Source: Geodia barretti (Eukaryota). From it: a stretch of DNA of 15,632 nucleotides. Shown in pieces: positions 1-14,312 of the stretch. The stretch covers positions 64,001 through 79,632 of the forward strand of contig CASHTH010000349.1 in assembly GCA_030341885.1 (NCBI GenBank), written 5' to 3'. The notes beneath the pieces were generated by a model, which saw only the letters and a program-made list of their open reading frames with translations, ran no database searches and was not told where the DNA came from. A program made the position numbers and the translations under genes. The first letter of the stretch is position 1; each line of letters begins with the position of its first letter.

Positions 1-272
1 TAACCACATTACTGGATCTATTTATCGCAGCAACTGACTTGGCAATTAGCTACATTAAACTGCATTTGGGGGCAACTTCTTTGCCATTTTCCGCATAATT
101 GTTGGCAGTCTGTAGCAAACTGCTAAATTTTTATGCAAAAACTTATTGTTGCCAAAATTAATAGGCAATCCAATCCCTACGTACTTTGTACCTATTTGTT
201 GAGTCATTTCTCGCATGGTTGGCTGGTGTAGCGTAGTGTTATTCTCCCTACATACAGAGAGAGTAATTGGAG

Positions 273-3200
273 ATGAAGAGTGTCCTCTCCTCCTGCAAAC
301 TGGAGCAACACAACTCCTTCTCAGACAAAGACAGCTACCCCCAACACACACCCTCACTTCCACCTCCCCCGATCTCTCCCCCACCGAATTCACCCACTCC
401 CCACTCTCCTCCACCTCCTCACCAAGCCACACACCCTCGGCTCTATCCGTCCAACGCAGCTGGCTCTCGATGCACCACGACCTCATCTCCTCCCTCTCGC
501 AGTTCACCTCTGCACTCCAGCGACACGGAACGAGACCGGAGACGGGAACGGGTCTCGGACCAGGATTCTGGAACAGAGTCTGGTCCAGCAGAACCAGGTG
601 GTGGACATGCTGCAGAAGATGGTAGTGTCGCTGGAGAACGAAAACGAGAGGGTGCGAGGGAACACTGTCAGACTGGAGCGCAGAGTCCAGGCCCTCAAGA
701 TGTGGAAAATGAGAGCTCGTCTCGCCGAAGAACGATTAAAAGAAATGGCAGAAAGTTCGGGTATTCTGGGCTCTAGTAAAGATGGGATTGTTTCTTTTTC
801 TGCCCTCGCTAGTTTTGAAAAGTTGCTGGTCGAGAAAGACGAGAAGATTGCATCGCTACAGTCGAGGGTGGAGGGAGAAGAGGAGGAGAAGGAAGGGAGC
901 GAGACCATGTCTGTGAATCTCCGATCAAAGCTGGCAGCAGAGAGAGTGAGAGTATTGGAGCTGGAGGAAGAGCTGCTGTCCTCCCGCGAAGAGTCCAGGA
1001 AAGCTCTCAGGGAGTTGCGTGACGCCCAGTCTGACATGGTGAGGAGGGAGTCGGAGGTCCACTACCTGCGGCACGAGGTGGAGACTGTGAGGAGAGTGGG
1101 CACCCAGCAACGAGAGGTGGTCATGGGTCTGAGGGCCGCACTCTTCGATAGAGATGCTCAGATCGCTTCCCTCACACGAGAGAGAACCACTGCAGAGAGG
1201 GGGAGACGAACGCCTGCCCCTGTTCGTCAACGCCAGTCCATATTTGATCTTCTTCTGGGTAGAGAGGTGTTCAATATTGAGCTGGCTCGTCGATCAGAGG
1301 CCGAAAACCTCGGTTTTGGCGTCAGTCGTTTCGAAATGCCGATATCGTCTCGGAGTAGCAGCCTCATCGTGACGGGAGTCAAGGAAGGGAGCCAGGCACA
1401 GGGTCTTCTGTTGCCCGGGAGACGAGATCCTGGAGGTGAATGGGTTCAACTGCCGCAGTGTGGCGTCCAGAGGAAAGCGGTGGAGATATTGGAGGCAGCT
1501 AAAGGTAGTCTGAAGATTGTGGCGGCCAGAGAGAATGGCCCGGCAGACATTGTCGGGAGACTTCGCAGCACTCCAGTCATCCCTGACAGGTCCCACTCTA
1601 CTCTGTGGACCACTGCAAATGACGCCTCGTTTTCTCCTATCAGTCCCCACCTCCCCTCCAATGACGTCGCTCTGTCCTCGTCGCCACGTCACTACAAACT
1701 GACACTCTCCTCCCCCGCCTCCTCCCCTCCCCACACACTCCCACTGGCTTCACAGATAAGACCACAGCCCATCGGTCAGGGAAAACTTATCGAGCCCGTC
1801 TCCCCAGAACACCTCGAGAACCCCACTTCCAACACCGGCAGAGCAGCTAGTAGCAAGAGTAATTCGGTGGACGAGGGGTTAAGACTGAGACAAGAAGAGC
1901 TGGAGGAGGAAGTAGACGCAGCTCACGGGGAAATTGATAATCTGAAAACAGAGAACCAGCTTAGTGCGGCTCAGAACTCTGACCTCCAGCAGAAGCTGAA
2001 AACCAGCGAGAGAGAAATGGCCGACCTCCGGAGAGAGGTTGAAGAGGTGCAGGAACTTCTGACGGGACTGAGGGAGAAGTTGGAGAGAGAGAAAGAGAGA
2101 GTCGGTCGTCTGGAACACCACAACGGTTCTCTACAGGAGAAATTCTCAGAGGCAAATGCAGAGAGGGATTATGAAAAGCAGAGAGTGTCACACGCACAGG
2201 AAGAGATTGTGATACTGAAACTGGAGTTTGAGAGGGAAAAGAGCGAACTTGCGACAGAATTGTCGACAGTTCGGTCGCGAAACGAGCTGTTGGAGGACGA
2301 GGTAAAGTCCCAGTTGGCTAAGGCAGAGGCGGCCCAGAGCCACGCAAGCCAGCGAGAGGCACTGAGAGAAACGGAACAAAAGGAGGGAGAGAAGTTAGTG
2401 CAACAGCTTACGAATGAACTGCAGGAACTTCGAGAGAGCTCAGCGAAAGAAGTGTCCTCCCTACAACTAGAGGTTGATCAACTCCGGGGCCAGCTAAGCA
2501 CCATGATACCTCAGGTTGAAGCCGCGGGGAAGAAGGAGACGGAAATGAAACACGAGCTGCGTCACCTAAGACAGGTCGCCAGCGAGAGCAACAAACAACT
2601 GACGGAGTTGGACAAGGCCCACCGGAGTCTCAAGGAGAAAATGGCGGGCATAAGAGAGCAAGCCGAGTCTAAAACCCTCGAGTGTGAGTCACTTACTCTG
2701 GGGTTAAAGAGAGCAGAGGGGAAGCTGCAGGCAAACAAGAACGTCTCCTGTCGCCAGCAGGAAGAGATCGATAACCTCCGTCGCAAAAACAACACACTAC
2801 TCGTCGAGCGAGTCAAGGCGGACGAGGGACGTAGCAAGACCGAACTAGCCCTCAATAACTGTCGCACAGAGCTGGCCTCACTGAGGGACCAGCTGGAAAA
2901 GCAGTCGGAGGAGAAGGACCTGTTTTCAGAGCTGGAGACCCTAGTGGCTGAGAACACTGCCCTCCAACAGCAGTGGGATAGTTCTCAGGGGCAGGCAGAG
3001 ACAGAGAGACTGTGCCAACAGCTGGAGGGTGTGCAGGAACAGCTAGATGAAGCCAGGGACTCTCTGCAGACAACTAGTGGGGAGAGAGATGAACTCAAAA
3101 CTGAATTGTCTCTCCAGCAGTCCAAGGTGGAGGAATTGAAGAAGAGTTTAGCTGCGAGTGAAGCAGCTCTGGGAGTGGCCGAGGGAGGGAAGAAGAAGAG

Positions 3201-5124
3201 CGAAGATCTCGTGTCCTCAATGACGTTTGTACACGAGCAGGACGCGGGAAAGACCAGAGAGCTGGAGGAGACAGTCGCGACAGCTCAGAGAGGGCTGGGG
3301 GAGATACGACTCGAGGCCACTAGAGTTCAGGAGGAAATGGGGCGTGAACTGCAGCAGCTGGGTGCCGAGTGTGCTGGACTGAGGCAGCGAGTGAGGGGGC
3401 TTTCTGACCAGCTGGACAGTGAGAGAGAAGGTCGTGCTGGCGACGTGAAGAGTCTGAGAGAATCTCTCCAGACCAGCGAGCGGAGTGTGTGTCACCTGCA
3501 GTCAGAGCTTCAGGCGAGGGAGTCCGCCAACAGCATCAACCAGGCAACCATTGCCCAGCTCCAGACAACCTGCGAGCAGACGGAGCAAGAGAAGGCAAAA
3601 CTGGAGGGAAGCTTGGAGGAAGTCCTGCAACAGAACCGCCAACTCACCGAGGAGGTGGAGAAGCTTCGGACATCTGTTCGGCAGCTGGAAACAGACAACG
3701 CAGCTCTGGCGGGAGAGAAACAGAGTCTTGTCGAGAGATGTGCCGAAGTAAAATCAAGCCTTGCACAGAGCAGTGGTAAGATTGAATCACTCACTGTAAG
3801 ATTAGAGACGGCACTCACAGAGCTCGGCCAGACCCAGGAGAGGCTTGAGAACAAACACAGAGAGGGTCAAGAGGCAAAGAAAAGTCTAAATGAGCTAGTG
3901 AACAAGTACCGGGAGAACGAGAAGAGGTGTGAAGGTGCAGAGTCCAGAGTGCAGGAGGTCACGCTGACCCTCCACACGAGAGAAGAGGAGGTGTCGAGAC
4001 TCAAAACTCAGCTGGAGGTGTCAGAGAGTGCGCAGACCCAGTTACAGAGGTCGGTAGTCTTGCTGCAGTCAACGACCGCCTCCCAGGAGAAGAAGATAAA
4101 AGTCCTGGAGAGAGAGAGAACTAATCTGGCGTCAGCCGTGGAGCAGCTGATGGCTTCGCAGGCAATGCTGAAAGAAGTTGTGTACTCGTTGGAGAGCGAA
4201 AAGGCTCAGAATGAGGGAGCAAAGAACAGAGAGATTGAGTCCCTAACGCATCAACTGGAGGAGAAGGTGGAGGCAGAGAGAGAGCATTTGGGGAAGATTC
4301 AGCAGTTGGAGAGAAAGTGGAGGGAGTCGCAGAGAACGACAGAGGAACTGCTGGCTGCGCAGGAGGCTCTGCGGGTGTCTCTGACGTCTCTGGGAGACGA
4401 GAGGGAGGGAGAGGTGGCGCGACTGAGGGGGCAGCTGGTGTCCCTGGAGAGCAGTCTTGTGGCCGCACAACATGAGGCCTCGGAGGCCAACACAGCGGAG
4501 GAGACTCTGAGGGAAGAGTTCTCGAAGACTCTCGAGGAATCGGAGCTGGGGTCAGCAAAGTGCTCACAACTTCAGGAAGAGTTGGAGGGTCTGCGGGAAG
4601 AAATGGCGGAGCGACGAGAAACAATAGCGAGACTTGCCGAACTATACGAGAAGGTAGGAGTGCTTGAGAAAAGCCAGAAGGAGAGAAGCGATAAGATTGT
4701 GGCAGCAGAGAGCCAACTGGAAGCCACGTCCAGAGAGTTGCAAGTGGTGAAGACAGAGAACGCGGCTCTGTTGGAGAGAGTTGGGGAAGTGGCTTCAGTC
4801 AGTCTGTCTCTGGCAGAAACCACGGCTCAGCTGGAGAAGGTGAGGGGGGAACTGGCGACAGAGGTCAAGTCACGGCGGGAGGCGATGGAGGAGAAGGAAC
4901 AGCTGCTGGGGGTCCTGAGGAGACTGGAGGTGGAGAAACATACTGTGAGCGTGGCACCGGCCCCCGAGGCCAGCTCAGAGTGGCAGGAGGCCGACCGGGA
5001 GAAGCTGCTCTCTCTGACCAGAGAGAAGGAGGAGGAGGCGGCCAGACTGAGGGAATATGTGTCCAAACTGCTCTCGGCTGTGGTTGAGAAAGCTCCGTTT
5101 CTTCTGGAGAAACTGTCAGATTGA
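273..5124 (+). CDS. Large coiled-coil protein with N-terminal PDZ domain and C-terminal Rab11-FIP-like Rab-binding helix (uncharacterised; one uninterrupted coding exon in window)
   Basis: ORF 280-5124 runs 1,614 codons without a stop; the track 'M' at 280 is GTG. Composition is heptad-rich K/E/L/Q/R across ~1,200 residues, like a myosin tail or golgin. A PDZ signature lies at ~1261-1536: ENLGFGVS..SLIVTGVKEGSQAQGLLLPG[DEILEVNGFNCRSVASRGK]AVEILEAAKGSLKIVAAR; the bracketed part reads only in the +1 frame. The C-terminus LREYVSKLLSAVVEKAPFLLEKL (5041-5121) fits the RBD-FIP consensus (..YIDNLLVRVMEETPNIL..). Stop is TGA at 5122-5124. The first in-frame ATG is at 607. ATGs at 273 (+2 frame, S/P-rich MKSVLSS..) and 215 (+3 frame) lie upstream, so the true start is unresolved; it could be an indel or an upstream exon using an acceptor near 502. 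Confidence 0.7.
1261..1536 (+). other. PDZ domain-coding segment; residues 1418-1477 are out of frame relative to the long ORF (compensating +1/-1 indels at GGG 1417-1419 and AAA 1474-1476)
   Basis: In the main frame this stretch translates GRRDPGGEWVQLPQCGVQRK. Shifting +1 gives the canonical PDZ core GDEILEVNGFNCRSVASRGK. The flanks GLGF-like ENLGFGVS / SLIVTGVKEGSQAQGLLLPG and AVEILEAAKGSLKIVAAREN are in the main frame. Confidence 0.6.
5041..5121 (+). other. C-terminal Rab11-FIP-type Rab-binding (RBD-FIP-like) amphipathic helix
   Basis: ARLREYVSKLLSAVVEKAPFLLEKLSD* conserves the Y-[IV]-x-x-LL-x-x-V-[MV]-E-x-x-P-x-[IL]-L spacing of the class I/II Rab11-FIP C-termini (e.g. ELEDYIDNLLVRVMEETPNILR). 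Confidence 0.5.
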
Positions 5125-5276
5125 GGCTCACAATTATATACCACAATCATCATGTGTAACAGCACCACTCTGTTCTAGTGCTATTGCGATGTCCAGTTTC
5201 TTTTTCACAAAGTTTTATCACAATAATCAGAGAAAAAACAATTTTGCTAGTGTATCTAGTGTTCTGGTTGCTATGG

Positions 5277-6557
5277 TCACTGGTCCACTGATATGGCTGT
5301 GGCATCAGGCAGATAGCCTTCCCAAACCCGAATCAGCTGCCAGTCAGAGAGGAAGAGAGGAGAGAGAGAGAGAGAAGGGAGAAGAAGGAAGAAGTGAGAT
5401 CACATCATCATGAGAAGTGCAATTATTAGAGGGGCAAAAAGACGTGACTGTATAAATGATTCTCACTGACCTCTTGTTGCATACTCATAAGTGACTCCAG
5501 ATAGCGGATGATCTTTTCCTTGAACTCTGCAGCTCTCTCACTCTGTCACACATAGACAAGTGAATTAATCATCTCCATAACAACCTGGAGCTTACCTCGA
5601 ACCTCGTGACCTCCGTCTTGAGCGTCTTCGATGCGTCTTCAAATGCCTTTTGACTCTCCTCCACCTTCTTCTCCCACTGCAGGGGTCAGAGCTCAGTGGT
5701 ATCCCAGCAACCAGACCACACCCACCTCCTCTATCTCTGTCTTGACGGCCTGCAGTTTCTCCATCTTCCCAGAGGCAGTCAGTTTCTGCTCCTGTTCTCT
5801 CTTCTTGCTGAGAGTTTGTTGGCAGGTCTGCCACACGTGGTACGCCCTGACTCTCATGTCAAAAGCAGCCTGTACACAAGTGACAGCATCAAACGGGTTA
5901 AAAAAGAGAACATAAAAGAAAGGGTGGGCAATTGAAATAATGGAGCTAGTTTTCATTCATTGGCTCACTCTGATGGCTCCCAGGAGTGAGATGTAGTCTT
6001 TCACAGTCTCCCCAAACGTGAACAAGTCTTGTTTTATCTGCAGCAAGACAAACTCCTTCTGAACAGACATCTTGGCAGGACATCGAAAGTCAAATCCCTC
6101 TTTTATTCAGGTACATGAGGTTCAGTGTGTCCAGTGTTACGTAATGTTACGTAATGTTGGGTCACCTGTTCACTGTGAAGGCTCTCGACTTTCTCCTGCA
6201 CCTCAGAGAGACGAGAGAGAGCTCGAGACACTGTGTTATTCTCCTCAACGTTTCCTAAATGACGTAGCAGAGAATGAGATACAATCTACACTGCTGTAAT
6301 TGACAGGGGCCTTACCCAGAGTTGCAACACTCTTGACGAAGTTACCTGTCGTCGTGCAGAGCTCTGTTCAGAGTGAGAGAGGAAAAGAGAGAAATGAAGG
6401 AGGAGGAAGGGAGGGTAAATAGACAAGAGCAGGAGCTGGATTATAGCGTCATACTGACCTTTGCGACTGTAGATCATGCCCTCTATTGCCTGGTGGAGTT
6501 TCTTCAGATGAGCGTCTAGAGCCTCGTAGTTCTGCTGATGTTCGTCAAACCACTGCC

Positions 6558-6589
<32 letters not shown>

Positions 6590-8156
6590 CAACCAGAGTT
6601 AGACCCGGTGTATAGAGGAACATACGCTGTCTGTTTCACTCTTCTTGCTGGCAATCTTGGAGATTGACTGTCCGACGTTCTTCACCAACCTCATGAACCC
6701 AGCTCCACTTAGGGCCGTTGTCTCTGTGGCTTTAGGCAGCTGAGGGAAAACAGAGAGACCGTACCTCCACACATCTCGTCAGAGGTTAGCTCCGCCCACC
6801 TCTGCTGGGTTCTCGAGGAAGTCGATGAAGTCAGCGTCTTTTCTGAGGACCGGGTGTTTGGCTACTCTGTTGAGGTAGCGCTGGAGAGCCGCCTGCCGTC
6901 TCTCCAGAAACATCGCATTGCCCTCTTCACTCTTTGAGAACTTGACTGTCGTCATCCCTGGGTGGCAGGAATCACGTCAAATGCAAAAAATTCTCCACCT
7001 CAATGGAGAAAACGCTGTGTGGGTTTAAAGCTGTCAGTGAATTTTTTCTCTTAAAGATTTTGTAAACAGGCTTTCTACAATTTGCTAATTTTAAACCAAA
7101 TAGTTATAATGCTTATATTTCATTAAAAGTTTGCATGCGGCACAGTGCGAAGGGGTAATGTGATATAATATTGTGAAACAATAGCCAAACTCTCTCTCTC
7201 CCCGGATCAGTTGGCTAACCTCTAACACTCTTCTCTGGAGCTGGAGGCACGATGCGACCTTTTGGGAGGTGGGTCTCAGCCATCTTGTTGTGCAGTCGGA
7301 GGAAATCGCTGAACCTCCGGCGAACGCTGGCCTCGGGTGACTTGAATGCTGGCACGGTTGTCTTGGTAGTGATGCAGTAGACAATGTAGGCCCCCATTCC
7401 GTCTCCCACCTTCTCGGGGTCAGAGACCGTGATCTCCAGTTCATACTGCTGTAAATCCTCTGCCTCTTCTTCCTGAACATTGAGTGTGAAACATTCACCG
7501 GTTGTGCTACAGCGTATGTGCAGTGCTACACATCCATTGACAGTCTGCACAATGTACGCCAGACTCTGTGATGTGGTGGTACAGGCACTGTAGAGGATTT
7601 CCTTGCACCCGAAACACCGACACACAACACTAGAGTGGATGCTGGTGTGTAATTCTACAGGTCTCAGTACACAAGGCCTTACTAGACAATCAAACAACAC
7701 AGATCAGTCCATTATGGTACCAAAACACACCCTCACCCTTCCTTAATGGGTTTCTGAATGCACACTTATACATGTGTATATTTCTTCCAATGTGGAGCCA
7801 AGCTACAGTTTCTGGTACCTGGGAGCTCACGTGAGGCGGAGGAGGCGGCTCGTCGTCCTCAAAGAGGTCCAGAGTCTTCTGCGGAGGTGTCTGGGTGACC
7901 GGCTTTGCCACAGGGGCGGGCGGCTCATCCTCCTCTACCGCATGCGCTTCCAGAGTGGGAGGCGGAGCGGCGGAGACGGGTGCTGGTTCCTGCGGTTCAG
8001 GTTCGGGCTCCACCGTAGGGGGCTCGTCTTCTTCCTTGTCCTGCACCTCCTCCTCTTCCTTTCCTCTGGCTCTGCTGTCATGGTGGCCGCGGGTTCCTCG
8101 ACCTTCTCCCTTGCTTCCTCGTCCTGGAAGTCCATCGGTGGAGGCTCGTCCGCCAT
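5277..8156 (-). CDS. snx2: Sorting nexin, SNX1/SNX2 family (PX + BAR, retromer SNX-BAR); 12 coding exons
   Basis: Exons on the minus strand, 5'->3': 7819-8156, 7220-7472, 6800-6957, 6626-6739, 6459-6552, 6316-6363, 6166-6254, 5969-6037, 5726-5869, 5596-5676, 5471-5542, 5277-5336 (stop TGA at 5277-5279). All junctions are GT-AG and phases are consistent. The PX domain is ELEITVSDPEKVGDGMGAYIVY..VRRRFSDFLRLHNKMAETHLPKGRIVPPAPEKS. BAR/C-terminal matches include LSGAGFMRLVKN, WFDEHQQNYEALDAHLKKLH, AAFDMRVRAYHVWQTCQQTLSKKREQEQKL, WEKKVEESQKAFEDASKTLKTEVTRFE, and LIRVWEGYLPDATAIS* against SNX1/2 ...YWEAFLPEAKAI[SA]*. The N-terminus MADEPPPMDFQDEE and DLFEDDEPPPPP resembles SNX2. Exon 1 needs a 1-nt correction at the T run 8060-8062 to join the ATG frame (8156) to the conserved frame. 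The exon 2 acceptor (7472) and its weak donor GTTAGC (7219-7218) are placed by homology; paralogue assignment is tentative. Confidence 0.85.
5346..5397. repeat. GA-rich purine tract (CT-rich polypyrimidine tract on minus strand) feeding the acceptor of the last snx exon (5337-5338)
   Basis: agagaggaagagaggagagagagagagagaagggagaagaaggaagaag. Confidence 0.8.
6135..6158. repeat. Tandem 10-bp repeat TGTTACGTAA x2.4 giving two perfect TTACGTAA palindromes (6137-6144, 6147-6154) in snx intron 7, 8-30 nt from the exon 7 donor
   Basis: tgttacgtaatgttacgtaatgtt. TTACGTAA is the palindromic PAR-bZIP / D-box-type site. Confidence 0.8.
6562..6587. repeat. (AG)13 microsatellite; on the minus strand a (CT)13 polypyrimidine tract immediately 5' of the snx exon 5 acceptor (6553-6554)
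   Basis: agagagagagagagagagagagagag. Confidence 0.95.
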
Positions 8157-8431: not shown

Positions 8432-9858
8432 CTAGCTGGCGGCAGCGCATAGCTGGTCAAACAGCGCCTCCTGTGAAGGAAAGAGACAGAGTATTAGACA
8501 AGTAGAGAAGATCATTATTCCCACCTTCTCCAAGTATTCCTTCACAAACAGGTGTTCAGGGTGACCGTCTTTGAGCTGGGAGAGATACCTGTACGCCACC
8601 TGCACACACATCATTAATTTGATGGTGATTGAATCAGGTTCAACAGTAAATGCAAGTCAAGTGCACAAACAATTCAATGAAGCCCAGGGCAACAGCAGTG
8701 CCGGCAGGTGGAGCTGTGTGACATACCTCATGAGGCTTGTGAAGGTACTGAGATACTGCCACTAGGTTCACCAGTGTCTCTGGATTGTTGTTATCCTATA
8801 TATATATAAGAGCCAAAGTGAGAGTTCTTAACAAGGAACCGACTCTCTTTCTCACCTTGGAGAGGGCCTCAAGCAGAAGAGACTCGGCATCTTCGTACTT
8901 GGCCTGGTGGATGTAGGAGACAGCCTGGCCATTCAGGAGCAGAGGAGTGGGTGTGGTCTTGTCAGCCATCTCCTGGAATATGTAGTAGGAGTCCTGGTAT
9001 TTCTCCCCTCCGACCCCCAGCCCCACCCAGGCCTGGGAGAGCTGGGTGAGAGTGGAATCGTCGTCTTTCTCTTGCATCCCACGAACCTCCTTCCTACACA
9101 CAGACAGTGGAACAATTAACATTTGTAAAATGCAACCAGATCTAAGATAGAGCATAAAAATTTTTTGCTTCCATTCAAAATGTGCATGATTTAATGCAGT
9201 ACACACTTGGCAAGGTCGACTCTGTGCATAGCCAGATAGAGCTGGACTCTCATGGCTGCCCTGAGGGAAAGAGAGACAGAGAGAGAGAGTTGAAAAAGAG
9301 AGAGGAGAGATGTCACACCCACCCCTCCAGAGATTCGGCCTGGTTGAGGCAGCGGAGGGCGGAGTCAAACTTCTGTTCGTAGTAGAAGATGGAGGCTGCC
9401 ATCAGGAGGAAGGTGTCGTTGTCTGCGTCCACTCCGGCATTGATCTTAGTCTCCAGCTCCTTCAGCAGAGCCTCTCTGAACACCAATGGAAGCATAGATA
9501 TTACGGAAGATCCTACAATCATATTCTCACCGTTTCCCTCGGCTGTGGAGATACTGGGCCAGCAGCTTCACTGCCTGCAGCTCAGAGGCAGACGACGACT
9601 TGACTTCGTCAATGACGACGGCGTACTTCCTCTGAGCGATGTATGCTCTGTACATCAGGACGTCGCGTTCCACCCCCAGGGCAGCCGTGGGGGGCTTTAT
9701 TTAGAGAAACACACGTGAAGTCTTTAGTTTTGAGCGGCGGGACGTGTGGTTTAGAGACCTACCCTTATCTTCTGCGCCTCCGTGATGCAGTGCTGGTAGT
9801 TGCCTAGGTAGAATGCCGTACGCACCTCAAACAAAACGTCAACGTCAGAACTCGCCAT
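8432..9858 (-). CDS. cope: Coatomer subunit epsilon (COPE); 8 coding exons
   Basis: Exons on the minus strand: 9763-9858, 9531-9694, 9323-9475, 9207-9260, 8856-9093, 8727-8795, 8525-8599, 8432-8470 (stop TAG at 8432-8434), totalling 888 nt = 295 aa. Matches to human COPE include [151 protein letters not shown] and [19 protein letters not shown]. Confidence 0.9.
9264..9310. repeat. GA-rich purine tract (minus-strand polypyrimidine tract) upstream of cope exon 4 acceptor (9261-9262)
   Basis: agggaaagagagacagagagagagagttgaaaaagagagaggagaga. Confidence 0.75.
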
Positions 9859-9980: not shown

Positions 9981-11959
9981 ATGCAACGCTCGGCCAACAG
10001 CCTGGGGAGGGAGGAGAGAGATGAGGCAACTAGAAAAAGCTCTGATCTTCGCCGGCGCATGTCTATAGTCATGTACACAGTCATTTTCCTCTACGCTGCC
10101 GCATTCTGGATCCAGACTGGAGTGTTACCAGTGAGTACAAACAACAGACCCCACACCTTCCCTCCACCGCCTCAGTCCCCTGCAGTTCCTCTCCAAGAAG
10201 CTGGGGGACAGACCCTGTAATCTTTGGCTATATGGAGACAGTGTTTGCAGTTGCTATGCTCCTCGGAGGACCTCTGTTTGGTCGCTTTGGAGACATCTTT
10301 GGAGCCAGAGCTGCTCTGCTGCTGGCCTTCCTGTCCTGCCTCTTCACCTACCTCATCCTCTCCTTTGCCACAGGACTCCCGGCTCTGTTCTTCTCACGCA
10401 TCTTTGCCTTCATGATGCACGCAATGCATGGTACAGCCCTCCCACTTTCCCACATTGACACTATTGCACAATTAGTTTTCACTCTGAAATTGGATGAACA
10501 ATCTGGACAGGGGCCCAGATGGTAATGACTGATGTATCTGGAGCTAAAGACAGGGCCGACGCTCTTGGTAAACTGGGTGTGGCTTATGGAGTCGGAATGG
10601 TGGTCGGACCACCAGTTGGAGGTCTGTGATAATCACTAGGGGCTCCCCCTGATGTAATCCTCAACTGCTCAGGGTATGTGACTGTATACTTCAGTGAGCA
10701 ATCGGCGGCAGGTGTTGCAGCTGCTCTGTGTGTGGTTTCCATGGCAATAGTTGTCATGTTTGTACCTCAGTCAACCAAGGACCCATCTCACCTCTCCTCC
10801 AGCAGAGATCCCTACAGTGAGACTGAATTGAGAATATTGCAGCTGTCTGTGAAGTTTTAGTGGGGTTTTAGCAAAAGATTTACCTGTCAGTTCACATTTG
10901 TGTGTTAAAATGGTGTAGCAGCCAGTGATCTGTATGTATGTGTGCTGTAGACTCTGGAGGAGTGGTGAATGTGAAAGCCATTCTGTCCCTCCTCTCCATA
11001 CCTGCCGTGGCCTACGTCATTGGCCTCAAAACGGTGATGGGTGTTCCTGCCGGAGTCTTTCAGGCCATGTTCACCGTCGTTAATATAGAGAGATTGGAGT
11101 TAACGCCAGAAACCAACGGACAGCTTCTGAGCTATATTGGATTTGTTACCATGGTATGTAGTCTCAAGTTGAGTGCAAACACTCTGGCAAACCTTCAATG
11201 ATAATGTATGTGATTGTCCATGGAAATAGACTTGAGAGTTGTCTCACGAAATAATTCTGAAGTACCTTCATTTCCTCAGATAATGCAGGGGTTTGTTGTG
11301 GGGTATATTGGAAGAAGAGTTAGCGACAAAACTACTCTCATTGGTTCAGTTGTAATTGTGGCTCTCTCTTACCTCGTTCTGGTGAGTGGGTGTGGCTTCC
11401 GGGAAAGGGGTTGAGCTTGGTGTGAGTGTCCCCGTTCTGTTCCAGATGGTGACGTCGACACTCTTTCAGCTGTGTCTCATTCTCATTCCAATGATAATGG
11501 GAGGGGCTCTCCTCAATACACTCACCAGCAGTGTTATCACAAAGGTGATCAACTTGATTATGATGTTTCTTACTTTTCATGTTTCGAGCGATCCCTATAA
11601 TTATCCCCCCTTCATTGACTATAGTACAGACTAATTGAGAGAGTGACTAGAAACCTATTTTTTGGGGGAGATTTATGCAGTACTAATATTATAGCAGTAG
11701 CCACATTGCATGGTGGAGATGTGTGAATGTTGTTTCCACTGATTCACACACCTCACAGGTGGTCCCCGATACTGCAACAGGGACCAGCCTCGGTCTGAGC
11801 ATGGCCACACATTCCCTCATACGAACTGTGTCTCCTACTCTTGGAGGCTACATCTACCAGTGGCTGGGCTACCCCGGCTTCGGAGCTCTCGGATTCACTA
11901 CTGGCTCTCTCATGGCAGCTGTACTTATGCTCAGAGGGGGAATCCCCGGAATTAATTAG
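9981..11959 (+). CDS. slc22a18: SLC22A18-like major-facilitator (MFS) transporter; 8 coding exons
   Basis: Exons: 9981(alt. ATG 10059)-10130, 10186-10430, 10511-10621, 10673-10816, 10951-11153, 11280-11381, 11446-11544, 11759-11959 (stop TAG at 11957-11959). Matches to human SLC22A18 include FLSKKLG, IFGYMETVFAVAMLLGGPLFGRFGDIFGARAAL, AQMVMTDVSGAKDRADALGKLGVAYGVGMVVGPPVGG, VNVKAILSLLSIPAV..LSYIGFVTM, IMQGFVVGYIG, and VVPDTATGTSLGLSMATHSLIRTVSPTLGGYIYQWLGYPGFG. Exon 2 carries an apparent +1 insertion in the G5 run 10203-10207 (see findings). Intron 1 is only 55 nt. Confidence 0.8.
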
Positions 11960-12404
11960 CAATTTTCATCAACATCACAATGTATAATGAAGTGCAAACC
12001 CTCGGCACACTCCATAGAAATGTGGAACCCATATATACACAAGTGTGGCACCACCACAATTGATGGTCTTGACCATGCATCAAAAAGAACAGCATGTTAT
12101 GCACCATTTCCATGGATTATTATCAATAGAAATGGGCAGCCCTACAATATCTGTTTGAGGCCCAAAAAATATATAAGGTTGAAAAATTGCCAACCTTTCA
12201 TCTCTCTATTTTCGTATTACCGGTGGCTTGTTTAGTGCAAAAAAAAATTTGCATGCGCGCCGAGGGTTAATAAAAAAATCTGCCACTTTGCTCTTTTCCT
12301 ACACCCACAATCATGTAATTTCACATTTTTATGATGACTTCCTTGTTATAAGAGAATCCACACCTATAAATTAAGCCACTAGGCTCCAGTGTACCAATAA
12401 AAAG

Positions 12405-14312
<1,908 letters not shown>

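Follow-up and report, generated by a model that had tools for sequence, protein, structure and literature searches.

In this study, we analysed a stretch of 15,632 nt from Geodia barretti (assembly GCA_030341885.1, contig CASHTH010000349.1, positions 64,001 to 79,632 of the forward strand; hereafter the window) to describe a long plus-strand gene that lies at its left edge and continues beyond it. An earlier note on this DNA had described the locus as an intronless 4.8-kb gene for a protein with an N-terminal PDZ domain, a very long coiled coil and a C-terminal Rab11-FIP-type Rab-binding domain (RBD). The window was compared with four contigs of the same locus, L001, L002, L008 and L009, which came from four ENA analyses of four samples; window position 1 corresponds to position 6087 of L001, which reaches 6 kb further upstream. 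The splice sites indicate that the gene has several exons, of which window 258-5124 is the last, and is not a single-exon gene. The full product is predicted to comprise ~1,770 residues, in the order Ras-association (RA) domain, second RA domain, serine/proline-rich (S/P-rich) linker, coiled coil of ~210 residues, PDZ domain, second S/P-rich linker, rod of ~1,026 residues, short break and RBD. The features of the gene are given below, with amino acid (aa) positions counted along the long open reading frame (ORF) of the window.

L001, from ATG 5103 to donor GAG/GTGAGC at 5280: upstream exon 1, with a consensus splice site
L001, from acceptor CAG/ at 5747 to donor GAG/GTAATC at 5888: upstream exon 2, with consensus splice sites
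L001, from acceptor CAG/ at 5940 to donor GGAG/GTGATC at 6077/6078: upstream exon 3, with consensus splice sites
Upstream exons, outside the window: RA1 and most of RA2
1-257, plus strand: 3' portion of the gene's last intron, with a polypyrimidine tract and the acceptor AG at 256-257
258-5124, plus strand: terminal coding exon of giant size (4,867 nt, phase 1), closed by the TGA stop at 5122-5124
258-335, plus strand: end of RA2 (its last strands, ERVIGDEECPLLLQTGATQLLLRQ), in frame 2, aligning with the RA2 ends of the homologues P0025 and P0041
~336-561, plus strand: S/P-rich linker
Between 530 and 531, plus strand: window-private 1-nt deletion (C, C, C and T in the other contigs), shifting frame 2 to frame 1
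562-1191, plus strand: N-terminal coiled coil, ~210 residues (ORF aa 95-304), heptad contrast 0.55-0.56, no prolines
1261-1533, plus strand: PDZ domain (ORF aa 328-418), interrupted in the window by a pair of indels that compensate each other
1414, plus strand: window-private 1-nt insertion (CCCGG in the window, CCCG or CCGG elsewhere)
Between 1467 and 1468, plus strand: window-private 1-nt deletion (C or A in the other contigs), bringing back frame 1
1534-1869, plus strand: S/P-rich linker, poorly conserved (13 prolines in ORF aa 401-500; lowest conservation in the family alignment)
1870-4947, plus strand: heptad-repeat rod, 1,026 residues (ORF aa 531-1556), from heptad statistics
4948-4989, plus strand: short proline-containing break between rod and RBD
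4990-5115, plus strand: Rab11-FIP-type RBD, ADREKLLSLTREKEEEAARLREYVSKLLSAVVEKAPFLLEKL, the best-conserved segment of the family

The plus-strand frame from 280 to 5124 is free of stops over 1,614 codons and closes with the TGA at 5122-5124; a stop-free run of 1,614 random codons has a probability of ~2e-34. This long ORF occupies frame 1. Upstream, the true coding sequence is in frame 2, as are the homologue-like segments TERVIGDEECPLLLQTGATQLLLR and MHHDLISSLSQFTSALQRHG, both upstream of ~530. Homologues start with ...TERVIGDEECPLLLQ at the position equivalent to the exon start. In L001, the last intron measures 266 nt and the donor of the upstream exon falls 10 nt before the start of the window, while the L001 allele reads without a break from the split codon to the stop (1,622 codons, one frame). 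Three more exons were located upstream in L001 by tblastn with the N-termini of homologues; they encode the tandem RA domains and all lie outside the window. Several claims of the earlier note have to be revised on these grounds. The start codon it had proposed, ATG 273, is in frame 0 and thus out of frame with the long ORF. Its single-exon gene is contradicted by the acceptor at 256-257 and by three upstream coding exons bordered by GT-AG in L001, and likewise by L004, a JGI contig carrying a distant homologue, in which RA exons stand directly before a 1,792-codon ORF. The 4.8-kb ORF of the note is confirmed as an unbroken frame, at 280-5124, yet it constitutes only the last exon of a spliced gene. 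An apparently intronless gene of this kind, in fact a terminal exon severed by the edge of a window, is a practical warning for similar analyses.

The Pfam family RBD-FIP (PF09457), whose cut-off is 23.3 bits, matched the C-terminal segment at aa 1573-1610 of 1,614 with 28.4 bits, and the protein ends two residues past ...APFLLEKL. The RBD-FIP scores of the homologues ranged from 27.9 to 38.5 bits. The last ~45 residues are the most conserved part of the family, as the tails of the window protein (ADREKLLSLTREKEEEAARLREYVSKLLSAVVEKAPFLLEKL) and of the sponge Dysidea avara (SSKEELIRLLKDKEEEAFRLKDYISKLLASVVERAPFVLEQMK) illustrate. When a profile of the tail was compared with all PDB entries, the Rab11-binding helix of FIP3 ranked first (E 5.8e-7 to 2e-4); FIP2 (E 0.011-0.025) and FIP1 (E 0.045) were also matched, and unrelated CRISPR-associated and septin chains appeared at similarly weak E values of at least 0.01. 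Within the tail the Tyr and the A-P-x-[VIL]-L-E end are invariant, and the residue equivalent to FIP3 I738 is Val or Ile. The predicted fold and the hydrophobic face of the tail are FIP-like. The RBDs of FIPs pair as a parallel coiled coil, and this dimer binds two Rab11-GTP (PMC9808001); FIP3 I738E, which changes the Ile of the Y-I-D motif, or a mutated FIP4 YMD abolishes Rab11 binding (PMC9282008). The heptad rod upstream of the RBD of the window protein is compatible with dimerisation.

This rod contains a single proline, and its hydrophobic periodicity of 3.51 residues stands at ~50x the median power. Its heptad contrast was 0.61 compared with 0.38 +/- 0.017 in shuffles (z-score ~14), and the rod would be ~150 nm long if the coiled coil is continuous. 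Weak, sub-threshold Pfam matches along it were to coiled-coil families only, and column occupancy in the family alignment was 0.89-1.0 over most of its length. A block of the form E[RK][ED]xLLxxLR[RK]LEVEKHT, at ~4850-4947 (ORF aa ~1525-1556), lies upstream of the break and is kept from sponge to fish; it is followed by QQPTPK in the invertebrate members and had no match to a known family. This block could be a second binding site, at the position held by the Arf-binding region in FIP3 (PMC9282008 for FIP3).

The PDZ domain was recovered only after the reading frame had been corrected. The raw translation of the window gave no Pfam PDZ match; with the insertion at 1414 and the deletion at 1467 undone, PF00595 was matched with 27.2 bits against a cut-off of 23.2. 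In frame 2 the PDZ core reads PGDEILEVNGFNCRSVAS, which is canonical, and the ORF frame gives PGRRDPGGEWVQLPQCGV instead; the indels at 1414 and 1467 swap the family-invariant DEILEVNGFNCRSVAS for RRDPGGEWVQLPQCGV. Exactly the restored sequence is carried by a cluster of proteins from other assemblies (P0001 and P0044-P0047, 99% identical). A profile of the PDZ family matched solved PDB domains with E values down to 1.4e-15, and the AlphaFold2 model had a predicted local distance difference test score (pLDDT) of 87.5 and a TM-score of 0.77 to MPDZ PDZ1. The domain has an LGFG loop, its beta2-beta3 loop carries an invariant P-[IV]-S-S, and the position held by His in class I PDZ domains is taken by a conserved Gln.

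Upstream of the PDZ domain, the deletion after 530 severs the frame link to the RA exons, so that the RA-side frame read literally stops at 623-625; the window as it stands would yield an RA fragment with this end, and the next in-frame ATG is at 607. The four other, independent contigs are all in frame at the three indel sites. Among them, 51 of 4,869 exon columns are polymorphic, and the indels at 530 (C/C/C/T) and 1467 (C/A/A/C) coincide exactly with such columns. The indel at 1414 falls at a CC[C/G]G polymorphism (1414-1417), for which the window holds both alleles side by side, as CCCGG. All three indels thus lie on or within 3 nt of segregating columns, with a chance probability of ~1e-5. 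L001 and L002 differ by 12 synonymous and 10 non-synonymous changes, a synonymous enrichment that indicates purifying selection. Because the indels coincide with polymorphisms of the other contigs, we read them as probable assembly artefacts: most likely, they are consensus errors at heterozygous single-nucleotide polymorphisms (SNPs) of a collapsed diploid assembly, and the species would encode the intact protein. That frameshifts masking a PDZ domain are probably assembly errors at heterozygous SNPs is a second practical warning.

The N-terminal region was reconstructed by joining the spliced N-terminus of L001 to the window from 258 onward. In this sequence Pfam RA (PF00788) was matched above its cut-off, with 65.8 bits over two stretches, and a weak match to RASSF8-10_RA fell below the cut-off. 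The share of RA2 within the window is limited to its last ~26 residues. In the coiled coil at 562-1191, the family alignment consensus shows that the motifs ILEQxL, ISFxAIxxFEK, AERVRVxELEEEL and ESEIQxLRHE are kept from sponge to fish. As regards the protein, part of what the earlier note had proposed holds. A PDZ domain, a very long coiled coil and a C-terminal RBD-FIP do occur in one polypeptide, with both profiles passing the Pfam thresholds (PDZ after frame correction). The RBD-FIP is at the extreme C-terminus, where PF09457 was expected and scored above its cut-off with FIP3 as the best PDB match. The rod of 1,026 residues has heptad statistics above shuffles, and an S/P-rich linker does separate it from the PDZ domain. 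The PF00595 match that the note had foreseen was obtained on the frame-corrected sequence (27.2 bits) and was absent from the raw translation. Its view of the PDZ domain as N-terminal and as the only globular module has to be abandoned, since the end of RA2, an S/P-rich linker and a ~210-residue coiled coil precede the PDZ domain within the window, and the protein has two RA domains as well.

The homologues are 1,450-2,050 residues long and have an identical domain order. Three sequencing runs yielded mRNA-like contigs of 6.2-6.9 kb that carry P0025 as a single ORF with RA, PDZ and RBD-FIP. Two RefSeq proteins of Dysidea avara (XP_065912781 and XP_065912780) have RA, RA, PDZ and RBD-FIP, and an unbroken 1,850-codon ORF covers most of the protein in the genome of this sponge. 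An exhaustive HMMER scan with a CC-PDZ profile over 1.84 billion cluster representatives (clusters at 50% identity) returned ~35-40 clusters that match the profile over its full length, one of them from a sponge, the other matches being ordinary multi-PDZ proteins. The apparent N-termini of P0006, P0016 and P0024 are prokaryote-style ORF calls that run through the last intron, where for example a (GT)n microsatellite is rendered as VCVCVCV..., and these false N-termini were trimmed before alignment. The family spans Dysidea avara to teleost-like genomes and could be aligned full length. In addition, the gene order Asparaginase_2, DUF2039, window gene, SNX and COPE is kept in a second contig, from a fish, whose protein is 56% identical. 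In word-indexed protein searches, the RA-containing N-terminus of P0025 retrieved two fragments only and the CC-PDZ family alignment had no match. Database names were found for Dysidea avara only among the 20 family members looked up, and these were assigned automatically in RefSeq and are uninformative ('early endosome antigen 1-like' and 'putative leucine-rich repeat-containing protein DDB_G0290503'). No named orthologue was found in this survey, which did not extend to named vertebrate proteomes, where a curated name may exist.

The remainder of the window holds the following genes, all of which consist of small exons, in agreement with the earlier note, which had described them as split.

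~5700-8050, minus strand: SNX gene (PX and Vps5)
~8800-9600, minus strand: coatomer epsilon gene (COPE)
~10200-12000, plus strand: MFS transporter gene
~13550-14310, minus strand: galactose-1-phosphate uridylyltransferase gene
From ~14420, plus strand: CID-domain gene

The SNX gene is convergent with the gene described above, and its last, Vps5-type exon lies at ~5704-5967, which leaves less than 600 nt between the 3' ends of both genes. No AATAAA or ATTAAA was present within 1.4 kb 3' of the stop codon at 5122-5124, the only related signal being a TATAAA at 5451, and a window-private deletion of 10-11 nt is located near 5224, in the 3' region after the stop. The first coding exon of the SNX gene (7690-8046, minus strand) shows window-private indels of 9 nt and 6 nt near 7777 and 7999 relative to L001 and L002. 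They fall in an acidic, proline-rich N-terminal exon, are multiples of three and look like real in-frame length polymorphism. Further window-private 1-nt indels are found in non-coding sequence at 7729, 8336, 8368, 8807, 9154 and 10208; the one at 9154 also sits on a difference between L001 (T) and L002 (G), which fits heterozygous SNPs mis-called as indels.

Taken together, our analyses favour the view that the giant exon in the window is the last of a gene conserved in metazoans, whose product would most likely be a dimeric rod linking Ras/Rap and PDZ ligands to Rab11-type endosomes; we give this reading a probability of roughly 60%. By analogy with the RBD helices of Rab11-FIPs (PMC9808001), the rod would dimerise in parallel and bring two C-terminal RBDs together, with which it would dock on Rab11-family GTPases at recycling endosomes. 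At a distance of ~150 nm, the PDZ domain might capture a membrane protein by its C-terminal tail, and the tandem RA domains might bind an active GTPase of the Ras/Rap type. The outcome would be a signal-gated tether or cargo adaptor between a membrane marked by Ras/Rap and Rab11 carriers. Several observations weigh against this reading. The window sequence as given does not encode an intact protein. Another assembly of the same locus was used to connect the window with the RA domains, which lie outside it; the model of the tandem RA domains was built from two sequences only and is of low confidence (pLDDT 67.5), and the RA region did not match afadin RA1 significantly (fold match E 0.057; phmmer E 0.77). 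Transcript-like support comes only from a homologue that is ~34% identical and not from this species. As for the tail, the single window sequence matched FIP3 only with E 0.004, and the Asp of the FIP YID/YMD motif is Ser, Gly, Ala, Asn or Gln in the family of the window protein.

Other explanations were considered for the gene, for the allele and for the tail. The earlier note had read the locus as an intronless, lineage-specific retrogene that starts at ATG 273 and encodes an N-terminal PDZ as its sole globular domain, and 4.87 kb without introns amid finely split neighbours would indeed suit a retroposed copy. We regard this as highly improbable: ATG 273 is out of frame, the acceptor at 256-257 and three upstream RA exons tie the giant exon to a spliced gene, and distant animals, including a sponge, have both the giant exon and the RA exons. 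Retrogene origin is opposed by the splicing of the giant exon to three RA exons, by the same arrangement in L004 and by the 1,850-codon ORF of Dysidea avara, and the lineage-specific expansion that the note had offered as an alternative does not agree with a family that extends from Dysidea avara to teleosts with full-length alignment and conserved gene order. Because the layout with the giant exon recurs in distant homologues and synteny is conserved, the giant exon and the domain architecture are ancestral and not the result of retroposition or of lineage-specific expansion. It could also be argued that the window copy is truly disrupted, whether as an allele or as a young pseudogene; the 530 deletion would then truncate the RA product, and the 1414/1467 pair would destroy the PDZ domain and leave the downstream frame open. 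The window does contain all three indels, and those in the PDZ domain compensate each other within 53 nt, which we estimate would occur in ~3% of cases for three random errors. However, the four other contigs, from four samples, are intact, each indel is on or beside a SNP, and CCCGG with both alleles is the signature of a mis-called heterozygous site. Moreover, neither an indel nor a stop interrupts the other 3.66 kb of the exon, and the polymorphism pattern points to purifying selection, so a genuinely disrupted copy appears unlikely.

The identity of the GTPase partner is the point at which the proposed function may be most readily disputed. The FIP-like helix might not bind Rab11 and might instead recognise another small GTPase (another Rab, or Arf) or serve as a dimerisation or structural cap, in which case the protein would be a scaffold or tether of a different pathway. 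This possibility draws on the replaced Asp of YID/YMD, in whose place the family has YVS, YVG or YIS, and on the RBD-FIP score of the window protein, which is only 5 bits above the cut-off; an FIP-RBD annotation on ELKS/ERC1, a partner of Rab6, may point the same way. Since this Asp is not conserved, Rab specificity may therefore differ. On the other hand, in the PDB the tail has significant matches only to FIP3, in its Rab11-binding helix, and FIP2 and FIP1 rank high as well; neither the hydrophobic face nor the A-P-x-L-E end varies from sponge to fish; and homologues reach higher RBD-FIP scores (35.9-38.5 bits). We consider a partner or role other than Rab11 possible but rather doubtful. If the preferred assignment to Rab11-type endosomes is followed further, the family might represent an undescribed third Rab11-FIP-type class, present since the base of the animals and perhaps missing in mammals, which would couple Ras/Rap and PDZ-ligand proteins to Rab11 carriers via a dimeric rod of ~150 nm; we put this forward tentatively, as a speculative extension. 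If true, absence from mammals would explain why a third class escaped study. Through its structure, such a protein would also link Ras/Rap signalling directly with PDZ-dependent cargo selection and endosomal recycling, and it would be an unusually long candidate tether for recycling endosomes.

Among known systems, several share parts of this architecture. Afadin/Canoe resembles the window protein in having tandem N-terminal RA domains and one PDZ domain in one polypeptide, and afadin RA1 bound to HRAS was the sole PDB sequence match and the top fold match of the RA region, neither being significant. In contrast, afadin lacks a rod of 1,000 residues and an FIP-type RBD, and its PDZ domain is not the nearest to that of the window protein, which is closest to the PDZ domains of MPDZ, PATJ and neurabin. 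The FHA and DIL domains that afadin/Canoe has between its RA and PDZ domains had no match in the window protein, P0025 or P0041, and a coiled coil takes that position. ELKS/ERC1-2 of the CAST family are likewise coiled-coil scaffolds of ~1,000 residues tied to Rab-dependent traffic, and ELKS/ERC1 is known as a partner of Rab6. ELKS has no RA or PDZ domain, however, and is a PDZ ligand rather than a PDZ carrier, and the Pfam CAST/ELKS family was absent among the matches of the window protein with E up to 1. In UniProt, ERC1 carries an FIP-RBD annotation near its C-terminus, which conflicts with the statement of the earlier note that ELKS lacks this C-terminus. GOPC/PIST also combines coiled coils with one PDZ domain and sorts cargo with PDZ ligands, but it has no RA domain. 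In RASSF7-10, coiled coils follow the RA domain. This domain is N-terminal in these proteins (PMC4695899), which in turn lack a PDZ domain. Neither GOPC nor RASSF7-10 has an FIP-type RBD or a rod of such length. Membership in the afadin, ELKS, golgin or GOPC families is ruled out by domain content. The literature searched contained no paper on RA or PDZ combined with an FIP-RBD, nor any on PDZ, a long coiled coil and RBD-FIP together, which accords with the view of the earlier note that no described family has this combination.

The closest relationship is with the Rab11-FIPs, the principal adaptors through which Rab11 recycling endosomes acquire their functions. Of these adaptors, two classes are recognised, one with C2 domains and one with EF-hands. 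Neither C2 (class I) nor EF-hand (class II) was matched in the window protein or in its full-length homologues, and no similarity to FIP3 was found outside the tail, where the alignment covers SRDELMEAIQKQEEINFRLQDYIDRIIVAIMETNPSILE. Compared with Rab11-FIP3/FIP4, the window protein has two RA domains and a PDZ domain, a much longer rod (1,026 residues) and YV[S/G] or YIS in place of YID. It nevertheless shares with these class II proteins (the arfophilins) the succession of a long coiled coil, a short non-helical break and a C-terminal RBD of ~40 residues. Of all the systems compared, the window protein would thus work most like the Rab11-FIPs, and its tail is nearest, by sequence, to those of the class II members FIP3 and FIP4.

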